DNA of 61,786 nucleotides from a bacterium (GTDB lineage: Bacteria > Hydrothermota > Tepidihabitantia > SM23-42 > JAOAFX01), in contig JBNAVN010000008.1 of NCBI GenBank assembly GCA_049700315.1, forward strand, positions 1-61,786. The letters are read 5' to 3'. Shown here one piece after another: positions 233 to 16,979 of this stretch. Both the position numbers and the translations under genes were made by a program. The notes below the pieces were generated by a model that was given only the letters and a program-made list of their open reading frames with translations, was not told the DNA's origin and ran no database searches. The stretch's first letter is position 1; each line of letters opens with the position of its first letter.

Positions 233-326
233 GGAGGCGGATGGGTGCTGGTGTGCCTGACGGGCTTCAAACCCGGTTGTCCTTCGAAAGGGGGACGGTA
301 GGTTCGATTCCTACACGCCTCCGCCA
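233..326 (+). tRNA. selC: tRNA-Sec (anticodon UCA)
   Basis: 94 nt. 8-position acceptor GGAGGCGG/ACGCCTCC, 6-bp D stem with TGGT loop, anticodon loop CTTCAAA (TCA 267-269), long variable arm with GAAA tetraloop, T arm GTAGG-TTCGATT-CCTAC, discriminator G and encoded CCA. Adjacent to selAB. Confidence 0.97.
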
Positions 327-2230
327 GTTCCTAAGACCCTGACTTCACCGCGCTTGATTGTGATTCCTTTTGTATCAAAATATATCAAAAGGGGTAGGGC
401 ATATTTTCTGCTGGCATTTAATAGGTCTCTAAATTCTGCAACCCTTATTTCTCTGTGTTTTTGTAAGAAATCTATCAATTTGGTTTGTGCTTCATTTATC
501 ATATCTTTATGAAAGGCAACTCCTTCACCAGTATAAATCAATGTACCATTATCAAGCAAATACCGATAGGCTTTTTTTACCAAATCAGCGGGTCCAAATT
601 TTTGTTCTATCAACGATTCTATCTGGGGAGGCTGGAATTTGGAATCTATGAATATGTTTTCTAATCTTTGAACCACGGCATCAAGTTCTTTGTCCAGCGA
701 TACTTTGAAATCAAACAGGCTGACTTTGCCATCCTCAGTGATTCTGACCTTTTTTTCTTCCTTTAAATTCTGAAGCACGAAATTAAATAAGGTGTTGTCA
801 AATCCTTTTGCAAGTTTTGTCATAAGTTCAAGTCTTGGCATTCCTAAAAGTGTAGCATTCTCTCGGTGATAAGTTTCTAAAATTCCTAAGATTTTCTTCT
901 TCAATTCAGCCGAATTCTTCTGGCTATAATATAATCCTCGTTTCTCATCAACGATTAATACAGCATTTCTTTTTATTAATTCCGCAATTAGGCTATGGGC
1001 TGTGTCCAGGGTCAAATTTATATCTTTGGCAATTTCTTCAATCTTTATCGGTATATTGAAGTGTTGGTTTAGATATTCTTCAACGAGTATCAGGGGATCC
1101 TGGGTATCAAGTTTTTGAAGATGGTCAATAATTTCTTCATCAAAACCCTTTATCTTTGTTGCCTTTGGTTCTAATATTACACCTCCACCAATGGTTGTTG
1201 GTGGAACATAGGTACGGATTACAAAACGGTCTCCGATGTCACAAACCGCTGGTGCTTCAAGACGGAACTGTACCATTGTCTTTTCTCCAGGTTCAAGTAT
1301 CTTTTTGTCCAGGATAACCACGCGTGCAAGAATTTCACTTGTTTCAAGATGGAGTCTCACACGACTAAAGGTTTTTAGACTGGGAGCTGAATTCAACAAA
1401 TACAAAGAGCCATTCATAAACAGGGAAGGTTCAAAATAACCTGGTTGCGCAATAACATTGCCCCTTTCTATTTCTTCTTTTTCGGCACCAGCAATGTTTA
1501 TTGCTGCGCGGTACCCGGTTCCAACCTGTTCTACCTTTTTATTGTGCACCTCAATCGCACGAATCTTCAATTTTTTTTTCTGGGGGAGAAGTTCTACTGT
1601 GTCACCAATTTTGATCTTACCTGAAAGCACGGTTCCGGCAATGACCGTGCCAAAACCCTTCATTGTAAAACACCGGTCAATGGGCATGCGAAAGATGCCC
1701 TTATCCTGTTTGGTTTCAGTCTGTTCAATGAGCTGATTGAGTATTTTCTTCAAATCTTCCATTCCTTCGCCAGTTGCATTGGAGATAGGAACTATTGGTG
1801 CATTCTGGAGAAAAGAATCCTGGGTCAATTTATTGATCTCATCAATCACAATGTTCAGGTTTTCTCTTTCAACCAGATCAATTTTTGTTAATACGATTAC
1901 ACCCCTTTTTATCTGAAGTAATTTTAATATTTCAAAATGTTCAATTGTCTGAGGCATTACACCGTCATCCGCAGCAATGACAAAGATTACAAAATCTATA
2001 GTACTGGCACCTGCGAGCATATGCCGAACAAATTTTTCATGACCTGGCACATCAATGATTGTTACATCATCACCGTAAAATGCAAATCCTAAATCTGTGG
2101 TCATTCCCCTTTCTTTTTCTTCTTTCAAACGGTCGGGGTCAGTGCCAGTCAGAGATTTTATCAAAGCACTCTTGCCGTGATCTATATGTCCTGCAGTTCC
2201 AATTACAATATGTCTTCTTGATTCGCTCAT
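311..2230 (-). CDS. selB: selenocysteine-specific translation elongation factor SelB
   Basis: GTAGHIDHGKS, DVPGHEKF, TKID G-domain motifs, EF-Tu-like domains II/III and C-terminal winged-helix region (FRDLLNASRKYALPLLIYFD). 639 aa, next to selA and selC. Confidence 0.97.
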   Translation of the reverse strand: MSESRRHIVIGTAGHIDHGKSALIKSLTGTDPDRLKEEKERGMTTDLGFAFYGDDVTIIDVPGHEKFVRHMLAGASTIDFVIFVIAADDGVMPQTIEHFEILKLLQIKRGVIVLTKIDLVERENLNIVIDEINKLTQDSFLQNAPIVPISNATGEGMEDLKKILNQLIEQTETKQDKGIFRMPIDRCFTMKGFGTVIAGTVLSGKIKIGDTVELLPQKKKLKIRAIEVHNKKVEQVGTGYRAAINIAGAEKEEIERGNVIAQPGYFEPSLFMNGSLYLLNSAPSLKTFSRVRLHLETSEILARVVILDKKILEPGEKTMVQFRLEAPAVCDIGDRFVIRTYVPPTTIGGGVILEPKATKIKGFDEEIIDHLQKLDTQDPLILVEEYLNQHFNIPIKIEEIAKDINLTLDTAHSLIAELIKRNAVLIVDEKRGLYYSQKNSAELKKKILGILETYHRENATLLGMPRLELMTKLAKGFDNTLFNFVLQNLKEEKKVRITEDGKVSLFDFKVSLDKELDAVVQRLENIFIDSKFQPPQIESLIEQKFGPADLVKKAYRYLLDNGTLIYTGEGVAFHKDMINEAQTKLIDFLQKHREIRVAEFRDLLNASRKYALPLLIYFDTKGITIKRGEVRVLGTGGGV

Positions 2231-3618
2231 TACTGATTGCTGTTCAGATTCCTGGATAATGCTTCAACAATGACCTTTTCTTCACCTTTGAAAACAGTTC
2301 TGAAATCAATGAGATAACAATCATTTTCAATACGACCGAAGATTGGCGGATTGTAAAGTCGCAGGTTTCGTGCCAATTCTTCTACGGGTATTCTTTGAGG
2401 TTTTATGGCAAGAACATAAGTTGGCAATTGTTCAGTGCTCAATGAACCACCACCAATCTCTGAAACAGACCATTTGACTTCTAATTCAATATTTGAGAAT
2501 TTTTCCAATCTTCTGGCACACCATTTTGCCTGTCTTTTTATCTCTTGAATTGGTTTCAAAAGCAGGGATATCACATTGTGATTTCTTAAGATTGTTTCTT
2601 CCTTTTTTAAAAATAACTGCAGGGTTGCTTCAAGAACTGCATTGGTCAATTTGTCACATCTCAATGCCCGGTGAAGTGGGTTCTTTTTTATCTTTTCAAT
2701 ATAATCTTTCTTACCAACTATGATACCACACTGTGGTCCGCCAATGAGTTTGTCACCGCTAAAGCATACAACATCCGCACCTATTTTAATACTATCTTGC
2801 ACCATTGGTTCTTTTGGTAGATTATACTTTGAGAAATCAAATAAGGCACCACTTCCTAAATCATCAATTACTGGCAGGTTATGTTTTTTACCCAACATTA
2901 CAAGTTCTTCAAGTGGGACCTGTTTGGTGAAACCCATAATTCGGTAGTTGGATTGATGAACTCTTAGAATTCCTGCAGTATTTTCATTAATTGCTGATTC
3001 ATAATCTTTCAAGTGGGTGCGATTTGTTGTCCCTACTTCGCGTAAGATAGCGCCACTTTGTGCCATTACATCAGGGATTCTAAAAGAACCACCGATTTCA
3101 ATTAATTGGCCACGGGATATTATTATTTCCTTGCCTTTGCCTATTGTATTGAGTATTAATAGAGTTGCTCCAGCATTGTTATTCACAAACATACCTGCTT
3201 CTGCACCGGTAATAAGTCTTAATAATTTGTTTATCTTTTTGTATCGGTCAGCCCTTTTACCTTCTTCATCAATTTGTAGACGAGAATAACCGACGCCAAC
3301 AGAATTCAAAGTATGAAGAATACCCTGCATATAAGGCGCCCTTCCTAAACCAGTATGTAGCACAATACCCAAGCCATTTATTGCATACGAAAAATAAGGT
3401 TCTGTTAAATCCTGCAGTTCATCAATGATTGATTTCTTAAGGTCTTCAATATCTGATATCTCTCCATTCAATATCTTTTTTCTAAATTCCTCTGTTTTTT
3501 CACGGATAATCAAGATAATATGAGAATGTTCCAGATTATCAACAAATGGCTTCAATTCTGGATAATTGAAGATTTTATCAATTGACGGAATTTCCTTGAG
3601 ATTTTTTACCTCTGTCAT
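2230..3618 (-). CDS. selA: L-seryl-tRNA(Sec) selenium transferase
   Basis: INGLGIVLHTGLGRA, VNNNAGA, SRGQLIEIGGSFRIPDVM, EVGTTNRTH, DLGSG and FSGDKLIGGPQCG (PLP lysine) motifs. Confidence 0.97.
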   Translation of the reverse strand: MTEVKNLKEIPSIDKIFNYPELKPFVDNLEHSHIILIIREKTEEFRKKILNGEISDIEDLKKSIIDELQDLTEPYFSYAINGLGIVLHTGLGRAPYMQGILHTLNSVGVGYSRLQIDEEGKRADRYKKINKLLRLITGAEAGMFVNNNAGATLLILNTIGKGKEIIISRGQLIEIGGSFRIPDVMAQSGAILREVGTTNRTHLKDYESAINENTAGILRVHQSNYRIMGFTKQVPLEELVMLGKKHNLPVIDDLGSGALFDFSKYNLPKEPMVQDSIKIGADVVCFSGDKLIGGPQCGIIVGKKDYIEKIKKNPLHRALRCDKLTNAVLEATLQLFLKKEETILRNHNVISLLLKPIQEIKRQAKWCARRLEKFSNIELEVKWSVSEIGGGSLSTEQLPTYVLAIKPQRIPVEELARNLRLYNPPIFGRIENDCYLIDFRTVFKGEEKVIVEALSRNLNSNQ

Positions 3619-10829: not shown

Positions 10830-11723
10830 TCATCTATAGCGCCTTGCTCTTTCTTCAAAGAACTTGTGAAGTTTCAGTGTGAAATCTTCTTCGGTACTCA
10901 AGCGGATGCAATCAATGCCAAGTGATTTTATTAAATGCACTTGTTCACTTGCCCTTGTCACGGACTGTTTCCGGTATTCTTCTATCATTTTGCGGTCATG
11001 AGTATTTACCATTATCGTTTCACCAGTTTCAGCATCTTCAAATTCTACAAGCCCGAGATTCGGCAGTTCCATCTCTCTGGGGTCTGATATTTTTATTACT
11101 ACAAGGTCGTGTTTCTTTGATACAACGCCCAGGGGAATACGAATCTTCTCAGATTCAAATCCTTCACCTATGAAATCGCTTATGAAAAATACTATTGCTC
11201 TATGTCTTAAGATATGCATTAAAAATTCAATTGCCTGAATCGGGTTGGTGCCTTTGTGCTGGGGCTGGAAATATAGAATATCGCGAATCAGACGCAGGAC
11301 ATGGAATCTTCCCTTTTTGGGTGGAATATATTTTTCCACACGGTCGGTGAAGAATAGTAGTCCAACTTTGTCATTGTTGCGCACTGCTGAGAATGCCAAA
11401 GTAGCAGCGATTGTTGCTGCTTGCTCAATCTTCAGTTGATTCTTTGTTCCAAAATGACTTGATCCTGAGGCGTCAACAGATAATATAACAGTGAGTTCGC
11501 GTTCTTCAACAAATTTCTTCACATAGGGTCTTCCCATTCTTGCCGTAACCTTCCAATCAATTGAACGGACATCGTCTCCTGGCAGATACTCACGCACATC
11601 AACGAATTCTATTCCGGTTCCTTTGAACGAAGACTTGTATTCACCCGCAAATGTGGTATTTACAAGTTTCTTTGTCCTGATTTCAATCTCACGAATCTTC
11701 TTTATGAACTCCGGGGATATCAT
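10830..11723 (-). CDS. DUF58 domain protein
   Basis: FKGTGIEFVDVREYLPGDDVRSIDWKVTAR...VKKFVEERE signature, downstream of MoxR. Confidence 0.92.
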   Translation of the reverse strand: MISPEFIKKIREIEIRTKKLVNTTFAGEYKSSFKGTGIEFVDVREYLPGDDVRSIDWKVTARMGRPYVKKFVEERELTVILSVDASGSSHFGTKNQLKIEQAATIAATLAFSAVRNNDKVGLLFFTDRVEKYIPPKKGRFHVLRLIRDILYFQPQHKGTNPIQAIEFLMHILRHRAIVFFISDFIGEGFESEKIRIPLGVVSKKHDLVVIKISDPREMELPNLGLVEFEDAETGETIMVNTHDRKMIEEYRKQSVTRASEQVHLIKSLGIDCIRLSTEEDFTLKLHKFFEERARRYR

Positions 11724-11833
11724 ACTACAAAACGAGTATTCTATAATTGGTAGGGCACTTAATGTTGTGCAAATTAGGACAGTCTGTAATATTGGAATTT
11801 AGACTTTTGAATTTGGTTCGTAATTTCATTTGG

Positions 11834-12829
11834 TTATGGAACTTCAACACCCGCAAGGATTTTTTGGACAATATCATCGGTTGTAATCTCCTCTGCCTCG
11901 GCTTCATAGGTGAGGATGATGCGGTGTCTTAAGACATCAGGTGCAAGTTCTTTTATGTCCTCGGGAATGACAAAACCCCTTCTTTTCAAGAATGCCATTG
12001 CCCTTGCTGTTGTCGTCAAATATATTGATGCCCTTGGAGAGGCACCATAACGAATCATCCCTTTCAGTTCATTCAGATTGTATTTTTCAGGTTCCCTTGT
12101 TGCAAAAACCAGGTCAACGATATAATCTTTTATCTTTTTATCAATGTAAATCTTTTTGCACAATTCCCTTGCCTTTATTATGGTTGCCGGGTCAACGACC
12201 GGTTTTATCTCTGGTTCGCCACTCACTGCTATCCGTTCAATGATATCTTTTTCTTCTTCTTTTGAAGGGTAGGTGATTTTTACTTTTAATAAAAATCTAT
12301 CTACCTGTGCCTCGGGCAGGGGATAGGTTCCTTCCTGTTCTATTGGGTTCTGGGTTGCCAGAACTAAGAATGGGTCATCAAGTTTGAATGTCTCTTCGCC
12401 GATGGTGACCTGTCTTTCCTGCATAGCCTCAAGTAAAGCGCTCTGAACTTTCGGAGGTGTCCGGTTGATTTCATCAGCAAGGATTAAATTAGCAAAGATC
12501 GGACCTTTACTCACAGTAAATTCACCGGTCCTTTGATTATAAATCAGGGTTCCTGTGATATCTGCAGGTAGCAGATCAGGGGTGAATTGAATCCTCTGGA
12601 ATTTTGCCTTTATTGCCTTTCCAAGTGTCCGCACTGCGTAGGTTTTGGCAAGTCCCGGCACACCCTCTATTAGAATATGTCCATTTGCTAATAGCCCTAT
12701 CAACAACCTGTTTATTAAGTAATTCTGTCCCACTATTGCCTTATTTATTTCTACCGTTAGTGCCTGCACAAAAAGGCTTTCTTTTTCTATTTCTTCATTT
12801 ATTTTTTTTATGTCATCCTTGATTTCCAT
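11834..12829 (-). CDS. moxR: MoxR family AAA+ ATPase
   Basis: HILIEGVPGLAKT, RIQFTPDLLPAD, LADEINR, ATQNPIEQEGTYPLPEAQVDRF, GASPRA. Confidence 0.95.
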   Translation of the reverse strand: MEIKDDIKKINEEIEKESLFVQALTVEINKAIVGQNYLINRLLIGLLANGHILIEGVPGLAKTYAVRTLGKAIKAKFQRIQFTPDLLPADITGTLIYNQRTGEFTVSKGPIFANLILADEINRTPPKVQSALLEAMQERQVTIGEETFKLDDPFLVLATQNPIEQEGTYPLPEAQVDRFLLKVKITYPSKEEEKDIIERIAVSGEPEIKPVVDPATIIKARELCKKIYIDKKIKDYIVDLVFATREPEKYNLNELKGMIRYGASPRASIYLTTTARAMAFLKRRGFVIPEDIKELAPDVLRHRIILTYEAEAEEITTDDIVQKILAGVEVP

Positions 12830-13003: not shown

Positions 13004-14068
13004 CTACTTTGTCACTATCTTACCGGATTTCTCTATATCAGGACTTATGAATCTATAAAAGTAAACACCAGAAACGACCTTTTTCCCTGCATCATCTTTC
13101 AAATCCCATTCAATCCTTTCTTTATCACCTGTTGCATAACCTTTTATCATCCGTATCTTCCTGCCTGTGACATCAAAGATATTTATTTCATAGAAATTTC
13201 CTTTTTCCAATCTAAATGTAAACTTTGTCCTATCAACACAGGGATTTGGTATGGGTGTAATATTATGCAGAATTGGATTTTGAGAAATATCTTCTTCAAC
13301 TGCGGTTAACTGGGATACCTTTATAAGTCCACCCTGCCAGACATCCCTTGTTGAGTCTGATAGCAAAACCGTGCTTTGAATCCAGGTGACAATCTCACAA
13401 CGATTCGCATTCCAGCCTGATTGCACAGTGAAATTTCTGCTTACGGTGATTGATTCGCCAGGAGCAAGTGTCACAGGTGTTCCACTTGTGTCGGGCAGAT
13501 AATCCCTTGCAACATGATTATGCCAGTTATCACCATTTGGAGCAGCATAATACAAACTATCTTCAGTCAAGACAAACCGAATCCTGCCGGTAACACTTGC
13601 GGTTGAATCATTGCGGAATTTTGCATAAACGGTTCCGCTTCCCCTTTGCAGCGAATATGTTCCCCACATTGTGCAGGTAAATGGTGCAGGTCTGTTCATT
13701 TCTGTGACAATTTTTGATTCCCAGGTTGAATAGGTATAACTTCCGTGTGGGTCTCCATCATACCAGAGCCAGGGAGTTGCATAATACCATGTACCTCCAT
13801 AATAATATGGTGGTGGGTAAAAACGCCATCTTTGATATGATTCTGCGCTATATAATGGGTAACTTGAGTTTATGTGGTTTTCTATCACCGCAACCCTTCC
13901 AGGATAATTTATTGCAATCTGCGCCAGTGTCCCACTGGCTGGATTACAGGAGCTTCAGCCTTCTGAATAGAACTCTTCACAGACCACGACCCTCAAGGCA
14001 GCAGAGCCAAGACTTACGAGTCCAAGTTCCATAAGCAAGCCCAAGATTAGGTATTTTTTTTGGATCAT
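13004..14068 (-). CDS. exported Omp28-like thioredoxin-fold selenoprotein (UxxC) with T9SS/FlgD-Ig-type CTD, 354 aa, Sec at residue 38
   Basis: ATG 14068 with AAGGGGG RBS reads MIQKKYLILGLLMELGLVSLGSAALRVVVCEEFYSEG-UGA-SSCNPASGTLAQIAINYPGRVAV and joins the 13004..13888 ORF in frame. Omp28-like motifs ATPWLWYDG and HNHVARD, CTD PNP...GVYFYR. SECIS follows the UGA. Confidence 0.88.
13913..13948 (-). promoter_or_regulatory. bacterial SECIS element
   Basis: Starts 6 nt after the UGA: lower stem UGUAAUC/GAUUGCA, internal loop CA/GCA, upper stem GCCAGUG/CACUGGC, G-containing apical loop GGA. Confidence 0.82.
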
Positions 14069-14119: not shown

Positions 14120-14599
14120 CTATTTTGCAAAGATTTTTTTTGTCAATCTTGCTATCTTATGTCCATATAGTTCGCAACTGGTGATGACCTTTTTATCGGG
14201 TTTTTCAATTGAGACAGGACCATAATGGTATGAACCAGATTCACCCATTATTATCATCCCATGGATCAAAAATGCCTCAAGGATACTCAATATTGTTGTT
14301 TCTCCACCACCTGCAATACCACCACTTGATGTGAATGCACCACCGACTTTGCCTGATAATCTGCCATGGTATTTTACTGTTTCATCAATGAATTTTTTCA
14401 TCTCTCCTGCCATCAATCCATAATAGGTTGGTGAGCCAAGGATTATCAATTCATAATTCAACAGGTCCTTTGGTTTTATTCTCTTCAATGGAAAAAGGTC
14501 AACGACCAAACCTTCTTTTTTTATACCACGGGCAATCGCCTTTGCCATCATTTTTGTATTGCCCGTGTGCGAATAATAAGCGACCAATGCCTTTATCAT
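14120..14599 (-). CDS. flavodoxin / WrbA-like FMN-binding oxidoreductase
   Basis: YYSHTGNTKMMA, LGSPTYYG, KVGGAFTSSGGIAGGGET. Start at MIKAL (14599) behind a GAGGAGG RBS. Confidence 0.88.
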   Translation of the reverse strand: MIKALVAYYSHTGNTKMMAKAIARGIKKEGLVVDLFPLKRIKPKDLLNYELIILGSPTYYGLMAGEMKKFIDETVKYHGRLSGKVGGAFTSSGGIAGGGETTILSILEAFLIHGMIIMGESGSYHYGPVSIEKPDKKVITSCELYGHKIARLTKKIFAK

Positions 14600-14629
14600 T
14601 TTACCTCCTCTCATTAGAAATTAACTAAA

Positions 14630-14651
14630 GCCCAATGAACTGGGCGAATAC
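14630..14651 (-). repeat. degenerate REP-like palindrome (same family as the copy inside cmk)
   Basis: Minus strand GTATTC-GCCCAGTTCATTGGGC versus GTAGTT-GCCCAATTCATTGGGC at 25568-25590. Confidence 0.6.
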
Positions 14652-14655
14652 AGTC

Positions 14656-15408
14656 TTAAAAATGAAAAATAAGAAAGATAACACTTATAATCAAACAATA
14701 AAAGCCAAAGAGATAGAACCATTTTTGGATTGAGACACGCAGAATTTTTAAGGCGATATAGCCAGAGACTAAACTTATCAGCATTCCAATGAGAATTTCC
14801 GCAGTATTTGGAAGATTCGTTATTTCTTTTAATTCAAGGATATTGGCACCGAATACTGCGGGTAAAGATAATAAAAAGGAAAAGCGGAAAGATTCTTCAG
14901 GCTTAACTCTTGCATATAGACCTGCAGAGATTGTAAGTCCTGAGCGGGATAAACCAGGAAAGACTGCAAACATCTGGGCAATACCAACTAATAATGCCTT
15001 TAATGGAGAAATTGTTTTTTCACCTTTTGAAACAATCGTTGTGAGCAAAAGGATTGTACCTGTCAATCCAAGGAATATCAGTATTATTTTTGTTTCTGTG
15101 AATGCATTCTCAATCATATCTTTGAATAGGACAGCAAAAATAACAATTGGTATATTGCCAATGATTATATTTGCTACATATCTTATTGATGTTGAATCTT
15201 TTTTAAATAATCCTGCAATAATCTGATATAAATCCTTTCTAAAGAATAAAATCGTTGCAAGGAGTGTACCAAAATGCAAAAATGCAGTAAATGCGACCTG
15301 TTCTTTGATTCCCATAAGATTTTCAATTATTGCCAGATGTCCGGAACTTGAAATCGGTAAAAATTCAGTCAGTCCCTGGACTATACCTAATAAAATAATT
15401 TTTATCAT
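14656..15408 (-). CDS. uppP: undecaprenyl-diphosphate phosphatase
   Basis: GIVQGLTEFLPISSSGHL, LHFGTL, FPGLSRSGLT, FSFLLSLP. Confidence 0.95.
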   Translation of the reverse strand: MIKIILLGIVQGLTEFLPISSSGHLAIIENLMGIKEQVAFTAFLHFGTLLATILFFRKDLYQIIAGLFKKDSTSIRYVANIIIGNIPIVIFAVLFKDMIENAFTETKIILIFLGLTGTILLLTTIVSKGEKTISPLKALLVGIAQMFAVFPGLSRSGLTISAGLYARVKPEESFRFSFLLSLPAVFGANILELKEITNLPNTAEILIGMLISLVSGYIALKILRVSIQKWFYLFGFYCLIISVIFLIFHF

Positions 15409-16199
15409 CCTGCTATGAATCCTGCAAGTCCAACCAGCATAATTATCTTTAGAAGATTGCTCGCAAGATTATTGTTGTGAATTTTTGCAATTGTGAAGAT
15501 AATCAATGGGATTGCGATTAAAAGAATTATAAGAAGATATCTTAAATTCAAAAAACCGAGTGCATAAGGTAAGGGTGATAAACATAAGAGAATGATAAGA
15601 AAAATAATGGCAATATTCCTTGCTCTTTCTTCACCGTAGATTATGGGAAGTGATAATACTTTAAATTTGTGGTCGCCATTTATGTCCATAATATCTTTGA
15701 TGATTTCCCTGGGTGTATGTATCAATAAGGCGAAAAATGCAGGGAGCAAAGAAAGGATATTATCAGTTATAAATCCGCCAAAGACAAAACTCAGTCCGGC
15801 AATGATTGCGACAACAAAATTTGCCAGTGGTGTTTTTTTGAAGTATAGTGAATAAAAGAAAAGGAGGAGGATGGTGATGATGACAAGAAGGAAAGGCTTC
15901 AATCCGAGGAAGAATGAAATCATCAATGAAACAATGACAAAAAAAATTGCCATAAATATTGCATTAATCTTTTTCACAGTACCTGATACAAGGGGTCTTT
16001 CTGGATTATTTACACGGTCAATTTCAATATCCATTATGTCATTTATTATATTGCCGTAAGCACAGACGAGAAATCCGACAACCCCAGCAAGGAGGATTTT
16101 ATTATTATATGTTATTCCTTTTGCAACCCAGGCACCGCAAAAGACTGAGACAAAAGTAATAAAGCAATTTATCGGACGGATGATTGATATATATCCCAC
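15405..16199 (-). CDS. UbiA-family prenyltransferase, DGGGP-synthase-like
   Basis: IIRPIN start, NIINDIMDIEIDRVNNPERPLVSG, REIIKDIMDINGD, SLPIIYG. Multi-pass membrane protein. Confidence 0.85.
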   Translation of the reverse strand: MGYISIIRPINCFITFVSVFCGAWVAKGITYNNKILLAGVVGFLVCAYGNIINDIMDIEIDRVNNPERPLVSGTVKKINAIFMAIFFVIVSLMISFFLGLKPFLLVIITILLLFFYSLYFKKTPLANFVVAIIAGLSFVFGGFITDNILSLLPAFFALLIHTPREIIKDIMDINGDHKFKVLSLPIIYGEERARNIAIIFLIILLCLSPLPYALGFLNLRYLLIILLIAIPLIIFTIAKIHNNNLASNLLKIIMLVGLAGFIAG

Positions 16200-16244
16200 G
16201 AATCATTCTACTTGATTTATCGTCCAATGTCAAGGAAATACTAT

Positions 16245-16979
16245 TCATGGTGTTATCGCAGAAACAAGGGAATAGACTTTTTCTGCGCCCGCCTCTTTTA
16301 ATACGCGAGCACATTCTTTTATCGTTGCACCGGTTGTCATTACATCATCAACCAATAATATTTTTTTATCTCTTACTGATACTCCTTTTTTCGTCTTGAA
16401 GGCATCTTTCACATTGTCCTGTCTTTTTCTATGGTCAAGACGGGTCTGGGTTTTTGTATTTCTATTTCTGATTAGGGCATTAACAACAGGTATTGAAGTC
16501 TCTTGAAATATTACTTCGGAAAGCAATTCAGCCTGATTATAGGTTCGGCGCATTTTCTTTAACCAGAATAACGGCACCGGACACAGGAAATCAACTTCTT
16601 TAAGAAAATAGTCTGTTTTTAAGACCCCTGCCATACCAAAGCCAAAAAACTTTGCCAGAGTGATTTTGCCACGGTATTTGAGATGATGAATCATTGTGTC
16701 AACCGGCGGCACATACAGCGCAAATGTCCGACCATAATCAAGATACTTTTCATATCTGCAAAATGCGCAGGTCTTTGTTTTGTCAATCGGTCTTCCACAG
16801 TGTGGACAGAATGGTGGACGGGTGTATATGACAAGGTTAAAACAATCGTTGCAAACAAGCCCCTGGCTGATCTCTTTTCCACACACAATACAGGTGCAGG
16901 GTAGGACAAAATCCATAAAGTACGAAAAGGGCAATGAGACGATTGATTTTATGGATTTTATCAGTTCAGAGTTTTTCAT
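16245..16979 (-). CDS. comF: ComF family phosphoribosyltransferase-domain protein with double zinc ribbon
   Basis: Four CxxC pairs, LKYRG, PVPL...RTYNQA, LLVDDVMTTGAT. Confidence 0.9.
   Translation of the reverse strand: MKNSELIKSIKSIVSLPFSYFMDFVLPCTCIVCGKEISQGLVCNDCFNLVIYTRPPFCPHCGRPIDKTKTCAFCRYEKYLDYGRTFALYVPPVDTMIHHLKYRGKITLAKFFGFGMAGVLKTDYFLKEVDFLCPVPLFWLKKMRRTYNQAELLSEVIFQETSIPVVNALIRNRNTKTQTRLDHRKRQDNVKDAFKTKKGVSVRDKKILLVDDVMTTGATIKECARVLKEAGAEKVYSLVSAITP

Follow-up and report, generated by a model that had tools for sequence, protein, structure and literature searches.

In this work we describe a putative recoding signal in a gene of a WOR-3 bacterium located at positions 13004–14068 (minus strand) of the stretch of DNA analyzed here, which comprises 61,786 nucleotides (nt) of contig JBNAVN010000008.1 and is designated the window. 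The gene encodes a predicted secreted protein of 354 amino acids (aa) and contains an in-frame UGA codon, which we read as selenocysteine (Sec). Downstream of this codon lies the 17-nt hairpin GCCAGUG-GGA-CACUGGC (13939–13923, minus strand), composed of a 7-bp stem and a GGA loop and translated as A-S-G-T-L-A. This hairpin is very probably the bacterial selenocysteine insertion sequence (SECIS) of the gene, i.e. the element that would be bound by elongation factor SelB for insertion of Sec. Judged from comparison of homologous sequences, the inner stem-loop appears to be a genuine, well supported and ordinary SECIS, and only this inner part of the foldable structure seems to be preserved by evolution.

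The open reading frame starts with ATG 14068–14066, which is preceded by the Shine-Dalgarno sequence AAGGGGG, and ends with TAG 13006–13004. The UGA (13957–13955) is codon 38 and provides the U of a UxxC motif (EG-U-SS-C), so that the active-site region reads VVVCEEFYSEG-U-SS-C with residues U38-S-S-C41. On the minus strand the UGA is directly followed by the spacer AGCUCC (13954–13949), the 5’ arm UGUAAUC of an outer stem (13948–13942), a CA linker (13941–13940), the 5’ arm GCCAGUG of the inner stem (13939–13933), the apical loop GGA (13932–13930), the inner 3’ arm CACUGGC (13929–13923), a GCA linker (13922–13920) and the outer 3’ arm GAUUGCA (13919–13913). An earlier note on this DNA had listed these letters and coordinates, every one of them correctly, but had left the minus strand unstated. 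It had also placed the start of the loop 23 nt after the UGA, which agrees with the spacing of 22 intervening nt from 13957–13955 to 13932, the loop starting at the 23rd nt; the inner stem is free of bulges and begins 15 nt downstream of the UGA. A GC-rich structure in an AT-rich genome, as noted there, is indeed present: G+C amounts to 55.6% in the 36-nt element and 70.6% in the inner 17 nt versus 41.7% in the gene and 38.3% in the genome. Folding with RNAfold, which had been proposed as a check, returned for a 66-nt piece a centroid that is exactly the described two-stem structure (-18.8 kcal/mol). The inner stem alone accounts for -11.2 kcal/mol, and the outer stem adds approximately 7.6 kcal/mol in this gene.

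Conservation of the hairpin was addressed with sites cut from 129 homologous loci and from the paralogues in the same genome, which yielded 123 distinct usable TGA sites in one ungapped register. When the T of TGA is counted as 0, the inner stem comprises positions 18–24 paired with positions 28–34. A first site filter relying on a narrow upstream pattern missed 21 of the 129 loci, and a relaxed scan detected UxxC sites in 20 of these 21, while L025, which carries an extra TAG, gave no site. The 21 sites obtained by the relaxed scan form seven inner pairs in 4 cases, six in 10, five in 4, four in 2 and three in 1. They enter only the register-free hairpin count given below and stay outside the pair counts, codon counts, recoding, alignment A1 and contrasts. 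Locus L046 (masked N) was dropped throughout, and the own-genome paralogues C1 and C122, whose hairpins occupy another register, were left out of alignment A1 (121 sequences) and of the tree.

Among the 123 sites, pair 21-31 is formed in all, 19-33 in 122, 20-32 in 119 (CG 110, AU 5, UA 1, UG 2), 23-29 likewise in 119 (UA 61, CG 53, UG 4, with 4 mismatches) and 22-30 in 116. In alignment A1, 87.9% of the cells of the inner helix are paired versus 81.7% in shuffled controls, 87 cells versus 32 have changed on both sides, and the covariation score reaches 0.242 versus 0.130, values that were attained in 0 of 500 shuffles in each case. When the partner strand was slid by 1–3 columns, at most 40.8% of the cells remained paired. 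The covariation among TGA homologues that the earlier note had asked for is thus found in the inner stem. Because the aligned sequences are related, we also made independent contrasts on a FastTree tree of the proteins, from which the hairpin codons were left out. Pair 23-29 changed state at least 16–18 times on this tree, and in 10 independent pairs on supported branches the partner base moved in the same way in 7.5, in the opposite way in 0.5 and not at all in 2 cases (median sign-test p 0.031, range 0.008–0.125). For pair 24-28 the contrasts were 3.5 same, 0 opposite and 3.5 unchanged of 7 (p 0.125), and for pair 20-32 all 3 of 3 went the same way (p 0.25).

As the stem lies wholly inside the coding sequence for a conserved motif, it might be argued that the hairpin is a passive by-product of the A-S-G-T-L-A peptide and of codon bias with no function at the RNA level, and the weak z-score of the fold in dinucleotide shuffling, reported below, would go along with this. 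However, synonymous positions in the stem are fixed far beyond the usage of the same genes: the Ala codon is GCC in 104 of 112 sites versus 26% in the rest of the genes, the Ser codon is AGY in 121 of 121 versus 35%, the Thr codon is ACA or ACG in 71 of 71 versus 47%, and the Leu codon is CUG in 109 of 118 versus 23%. The Ala codon directly 3’ of the inner stem is spread like background. Compensation occurs at third codon positions, where U-A is replaced by C-G 53 times and C-G by A-U or U-A 6 times. The first loop base is G in 121 of the 123 sites (loops GUA 39, GGA 36, GUG 28, GUC 10, GGG 6 and GAG 2), in accordance with the G in the apical loop directly 3’ of the UGA on which the earlier note had relied. 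The codon harboring this G encodes Gly, Ser (AGU), Cys, Arg or Trp, i.e. the residue varies and only the middle G is common to all. Moreover, recodings that keep the protein seldom fold as stably. When each site was recoded 200 times according to the codon usage of the family, the minimum free energy (MFE) was -6.0 on average versus -10.7 for the real sequences (mean z -1.98, n=123), and at 58% of the Sec sites at most 5% of the recodings were as stable. For the window’s own site (36 nt) the MFE is -12.9, the recodings average -6.5 (z = -2.58) and 3 of the 200 match its stability.

A further argument against a mere by-product of the peptide comes from Cys homologues, which have a related helix-1 sequence and lack the hairpin. 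Residues 1–90, searched against an index of 5.8 billion proteins for a close Cys homologue, retrieved only the window’s own truncated protein, and a 66-aa query against 1.84 billion representatives gave four matches, none of which is a close Cys form. Three of the four are multi-domain DsbA-like proteins with a motif of the same form (..EFSDFxCPFC..), and the fourth is a relative of 253 aa in which Val occupies the Sec position (P0123 of the representative library; ..EEAYDEA-V-DSC..). The latter is the only relative of the N-terminal region that is not truncated, and its C-terminus looks frameshifted. Because no close Cys homologue was found, the comparison was made with distant Cys forms from other WOR-3 families, which possess the motif CxxCxxA[N/D]..LD and from which 26 sites were taken. 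Their recoding z-score averages -0.16 (n=26) versus -1.98 at the Sec sites (Mann-Whitney p 1e-11, a value that is overstated as the sequences are related). Counted without regard to register, a G-loop hairpin of at least 5 bp is present at 144 of 144 Sec sites versus 6 of 26 Cys sites, and one of at least 6 bp at 118 of 144 versus 3 of 26, which is the loss in Cys forms anticipated by the earlier note. Taken together, we consider it very unlikely that peptide and codon bias alone produced the hairpin. One Cys form, L176 (CYPCKGASEVLD), still has A-S and forms 4 bp of the CCAG...CUGG stem; this partial pairing may either be left over from the Sec-type hairpin or have preceded it.

Some relatives carry a different hairpin. 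In a subgroup reading A-S-V-A-V-D the usual register is lost and CCGCCA-GUG-UGGCGG is found 3 nt upstream. Divergent paralogues in the same genome have CAGCAAG-AGGU-CUUGCUG and GCUCGC-GGA-GCGGGC at the same place, and a divergent paralogue elsewhere has UGCAGCG-GGUC-CGCUGCA there. The occurrence of different hairpins at one place therefore points to selection for a G-loop hairpin at this distance from the UGA rather than for a particular sequence.

Several observations weigh against assigning a SECIS function to the 7-bp stem and have to be set beside these data. The closing pair 18-34 is often open (formed in 67 of 123 sites), as is the loop-adjacent pair 24-28 (84 of 123; GC 59, AU 24). De novo prediction by RNAalifold on alignment A1 returned just three pairs of the inner stem (columns 26-40, 27-39 and 28-38; -0.51 kcal/mol) and failed to recover the full 7-bp stem. 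Because the homologues are related, significance is overstated by the shuffle controls, and the test by independent contrasts rests on the 10 pairs for 23-29, while pairs 24-28 and 20-32, although pointing in the same direction, provide too few contrasts for a significant result. The Cys forms used for comparison are only distantly related (approximately 30–35% identity, open reading frames of roughly 600 aa). Dinucleotide shuffling of the 66-nt fold gave z = -0.98 with 32 of 200 shuffles equally stable, and with so small a z-score this test is uninformative on its own. Finally, no Rfam family covers the hairpin; between 13850 and 14010 there are 3 unrelated matches at chance level (E 1.6–5.5).

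The earlier note had proposed a two-stem in-frame SECIS. While the inner 7-bp stem and the 3-nt loop that it carries are conserved, the outer stem, formed in this gene, lies outside the conserved element. All seven outer pairs are present in only 4 of the 123 sites, the mode being 3–4 pairs. On alignment A1, 52.2% of the outer-stem cells are paired versus 51.0% in shuffles (16 of 500 reach this value), the covariation score is 0.162 versus 0.152 (57 of 500), and sliding the partner by +3 scores as well (50.1% paired, covariation 0.176). The Cys (UGU 76, UGC 47), Gln, Ile and Ala codons of the outer arms follow background usage. Because neither conservation nor synonymous constraint is seen, the term two-stem SECIS is an overstatement, and we rejected the outer stem as a part of the SECIS, its pairing being about that of shuffles and its synonymous sites behaving like background. 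Conceivably, the full two-stem structure could be the functional SECIS within the genus, with the lower helix positioning or stabilizing the top to which SelB binds. The outer stem is perfect here and lowers the folding energy from -11.2 to -18.8 kcal/mol, and it is intact in the nearest orthologues, e.g. L014 and L016. These orthologues share the peptide C-N-P...Q-I-A, which accounts for the retention of the stem among them, and in view of the pairing and codon data given above a role of the lower helix seems improbable. The outer stem, which shows no sign of selection in the alignments, rather appears to result from the local sequence coding for Cys-Asn-Pro...Gln-Ile-Ala and not to be a selected part of the signal.

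Next, the reading of the UGA itself has to be considered. A protein search returned 358 homologues, and all 120 that were listed are 221–313 aa long and cover 63–89% of the query; therefore, these are called as starting after the TGA. Where organisms are given for the listed homologues, they are candidate division WOR-3 or unclassified bacterium. Such uniform annotation would suit the view that the UGA is a true stop, that the gene starts downstream at GTG 13888 as in the database, and that the hairpin is a terminator, an attenuator or a re-initiation element. Against this, the 37 upstream codons are open and conserved and provide the Shine-Dalgarno sequence, a signal peptide and the first thioredoxin strand, whereas the shortened protein would be left without export signal and active site. 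In addition, in alignments with the Cys forms and with DsbA-like proteins the TGA coincides with the first Cys of CxxC, and no T run follows the stem on its 3’ side. A true stop can thus be regarded as highly improbable. In a six-frame search of 272 WOR-3 genomes, matches were obtained in 141 genomes, and 148 of the 150 matches listed contain one in-frame TGA. The remaining two start at query residues 55 and 110 and fall short of the Sec site. The genome under study encodes six UxxC paralogues. A look-up of sequencing runs that might show expression listed none.

Recoding of the UGA as Sec is further in agreement with the presence of the complete machinery. Transfer RNA for Sec (tRNA-Sec) is encoded at 233–322 (plus strand; Rfam RF01852, 76.9 bits, gathering cut-off 47) and is the only Rfam match of the window at gathering level. 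The genes selB, coding for the Sec-specific elongation factor (332–2209, minus strand; TIGR00475, 365.5 bits, cut-off 242), and selA, coding for selenocysteine synthase (2254–3600, minus strand; TIGR00474, 542.9 bits, cut-off 267.9), are also located in the window. SelB is of full length including the C-terminal SECIS-binding part, the match covering profile positions 1–579 of 581. Gene selD resides on another contig and contains an in-frame TGA of its own; hence tRNA-Sec, SelA, SelB and SelD are all encoded in the genome, each scoring above its curated cut-off. Next to selD (C1:29342-30253, minus strand, and C1:31523-32200, minus strand, for the two genes) lies the longer Omp28-like UxxC paralogue with a frame of 625 aa, to which the hairpin CAGCAAG-AGGU-CUUGCUG belongs; sequence and register of this hairpin are unlike those of the window hairpin.

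In other systems, read-through of a stop codon can be enhanced by a hairpin on its 3’ side. In principle, the UGA might therefore be read without selenium, either by near-cognate insertion of Trp, Cys or Gly or through a reassigned code, with the hairpin serving as a generic stimulator. However, the complete Sec machinery that the genome holds next to this gene, the position of the TGA at a redox Cys, the restriction of in-frame TGAs to few families and the agreement of the hairpin with the SelB-type model including the loop G all speak against this explanation, which we consider the least credible of those discussed. The hairpin, which is conserved and covaries in TGA homologues and is lost in Cys forms, together with tRNA-Sec, selA, selB and selD in the genome, bears out the claim of the earlier note that there is independent support for recoding, in this case at the level of RNA.

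The predicted product is composed of a signal peptide, a thioredoxin-like UxxC domain, an Omp28/Ig-like middle part and a C-terminal tail for the type IX secretion system (T9SS). Residues 97–228 match Pfam PF11551 Omp28 with 50.4 bits (gathering cut-off 34.9) and residues 272–350 match the T9SS type A sorting tail TIGR04183 with 29.6 bits (cut-off 23), while the Pfam version of the sorting tail, PF18962, stays with 19 bits below its cut-off of 27. An AlphaFold model based on 38 read-through homologues has a mean predicted local distance difference test (pLDDT) score of 89.9, with blocks of approximately 96 on either side of residue 38. In this model U38 is placed between strand 28–34 and the N-terminus of helix 41–54, which is the CxxC place of the thioredoxin fold. 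The best match in the PDB to the whole model, as determined by Foldseek, is HBP35 (5y1a; E 4e-14, template modeling scores 0.54/0.60), and searches with the family profile also reach the DUF1223 structure 2axo and a thioredoxin in alignments that cross the Sec position. The matches to HBP35 and to DsbA-like proteins span this site as well, in keeping, like the high pLDDT on either side of it, with a single protein.

Based on these features we propose the following course of events. During translation, SelB in complex with GTP and Sec-tRNASec would use its C-terminal winged-helix domains to bind the apical portion of the hairpin and would thus be tethered at the mRNA entrance as the UGA reaches the A site. 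Selenocysteine would be inserted and termination avoided. The ribosome would then melt the hairpin and translate it into Ala-Ser-Gly-Thr-Leu-Ala, with which helix 1 of the thioredoxin-like domain begins. The presumed outcome is an HBP35-like redox protein that is secreted, sorted by the T9SS and equipped with a U-x-x-C active site.

The earlier note had also recommended the hairpin as a template for finding the remaining selenoproteome of the lineage. In its literal form this did not work: CCAG-NN-NNN-NN-CTGG occurs at 14 loci of the genome, a TGA on the sense strand 19 nt upstream of CCAG is found in 4 of the 14, and these are paralogues of the same family. The family motif was therefore rejected as a genome-wide template. 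In contrast, other conserved TGA genes were revealed when the genome was scanned generically for G-loop hairpins that accompany an in-frame TGA flanked on either side by coding sequence; the six paralogues ranked near the top, accompanied by two HdrA-like genes and a T9SS family with a Cys-Sec dyad. The HdrA-like flavoprotein/ferredoxin genes (L194 at C3:76600-79008 and L195 at C44:7530-10676, both minus strand) contain their in-frame TGA in the context ..DC[AT][IA]-U-ILGPKMMDVGRHPNI.., and one of the two is fused to an MvhD/FlpD domain. Both possess identical 8-bp hairpins, UGGAUGUC-GGUC-GACAUCCA.

Members of the dyad family are located at C23:6905-8863 (minus strand; L198) and C94:4314-6035 (plus strand; L196) and read ..HTC-U-GASQLAKVFADD.., with U at residue 195 of 653. 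A hairpin of 6–7 bp with a GGUC loop follows the TGA, and apart from the sorting tail no Pfam or NCBIfam match was obtained. One TGA is present in each listed match covering the N-terminal domain, in 31 of 31 related genomes. A dyad family gene lies between two Omp28-like UxxC genes. The gene next to L198, L199 (C23:4552-6834, minus strand), encodes a BNR/sortilin-like T9SS protein with an in-frame TGA, whose first base is 5583. This TGA is situated inside a PSII_BNR/Ycf48-type match (residues 202–435), and a 7-bp hairpin with loop CGGGU stands further downstream than usual; whether Sec, a broken gene or an error is involved is unclear. The neighbors L198 and L199 share identical ends of approximately 90 aa (..PNPFQNHLTIRWQIGDRRKQIKDELPSAI..), and the C94 paralogue breaks off there at the end of its contig, so this stretch may be a repeat that limited the assembly. 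A further candidate, L197 (C22:33856-35298, minus strand), is an open frame of 481 codons reading ..RDSC-U-SVGN.. with an 8-bp hairpin (loop CGUGU) after the TGA, for which no family match was found.

The HBP35-like UxxC proteins and at least one further conserved family, with the Cys-Sec dyad and without known domain, would be part of a wider picture, which we put forward tentatively and whose chances we rate a little short of even. According to this, one large WOR-3 clade (families f1–f14) would possess an expanded, T9SS-exported extracellular selenoproteome. In the secreted redox proteins of this lineage, Sec would have taken the place of Cys completely, and the protein sequence would visibly be dictated by the RNA signal. 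Helix 1 would be confined to A-S-[G/S/C/R/W]-x-L, since GCCAG-Y-R-G-N-N-Y-R-CUGG is required at the RNA level. If true, the SECIS requirement would have frozen a part of the protein itself, namely helix 1 of the thioredoxin domain.

The genes flanking the selenoprotein gene are ordinary. On its 3’ side (window 10830–12829, minus strand) a MoxR-type AAA ATPase and a DUF58/VWA protein are encoded, and on its 5’ side (14120–16979, minus strand) a flavodoxin-like protein, BacA, a UbiA prenyltransferase and a ComF-like phosphoribosyltransferase.

The main practical consequence concerns public annotation, in which a large family of secreted selenoproteins is truncated. As annotated, the listed homologues have neither signal peptide nor active site, and once this is corrected, an entire family of secreted redox proteins would be regained for an uncultured phylum. 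Beyond this, the more than 140 natural variants of the hairpin, with their compensatory changes and shifted register, would provide a clean data set on what a non-model SelB tolerates. Knowledge of how bacterial SECIS elements work is left unchanged by the finding.

A known family related to the window protein is the hypothetical protein GOS_C, which Zhang & Gladyshev 2008 (PMC2398784) describe as a UxxC protein of Trx-like fold represented by 74 Sec and 312 Cys sequences and which equals the Omp28-related selenoprotein NF045500 of NCBIfam according to a table in PMC13188914. Both share the UxxC in a thioredoxin-like fold, homology to Omp28 and a predicted bacterial SECIS after the TGA. The window protein scores 37 bits against NF045500, or 29.4 bits in the genome search, and the best paralogue in the same genome scores 65 bits. 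Because this is far under the cut-off of 200 bits, we regard it as a distant relative and not as a member of that family. Unlike NF045500, the branch of the window protein carries a T9SS tail, has six paralogues in its own genome and lacks a close Cys form in the searches described above. In full-text literature searches, co-occurrence of the term selenoprotein with Omp28 or with WOR-3 was not found. HBP35 of Porphyromonas gingivalis, although the best structural match, is only 15% identical to the window protein in the Foldseek alignment; judging by the thioredoxin-like motif named in its listing, it is presumably a Cys protein for which no SECIS is required.

In the archetype of bacterial SECIS elements, the fdhF hairpin of E. 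coli, a U is bulged and the loop is of the GGUC type, and a minimal fdhF hairpin of 17 nt reportedly works at 11 nt from the UGA. Compared with fdhF, the stem in the window starts 15 nt after the UGA and is devoid of a bulge. The triloop GGA, replaced by GUA, GUG or GUC in relatives, likewise sets the window hairpin apart from the usual bacterial SECIS, and its sequence has no relative in Rfam. A model of bacterial SECIS elements, as set out in the 2026 review PMC13188914, calls for a loop of 3–9 nt, a stem of 4–16 bp, at least one G among loop bases 1 and 2 (GG or GU in most cases), a distance of 16–37 nt between UGA and loop, and an MFE of at most -7.5 kcal/mol. All of these features are found here: the loop GGA has 3 nt, the stem 7 bp, the spacing is 22 nt and the inner hairpin alone reaches -11.2 kcal/mol. 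Its placement, in frame within an open frame of 354 codons and directly 3’ of the UGA, corresponds as well. Similarly, the window hairpin fits the stem of 6–8 bp and the conserved loop G at approximately 20 nt after the UGA that are given for SECIS hairpins in the SelB structure paper PMC4605307. Thus, the element belongs to a kind of bacterial SECIS that is already known, of which it is a further example.

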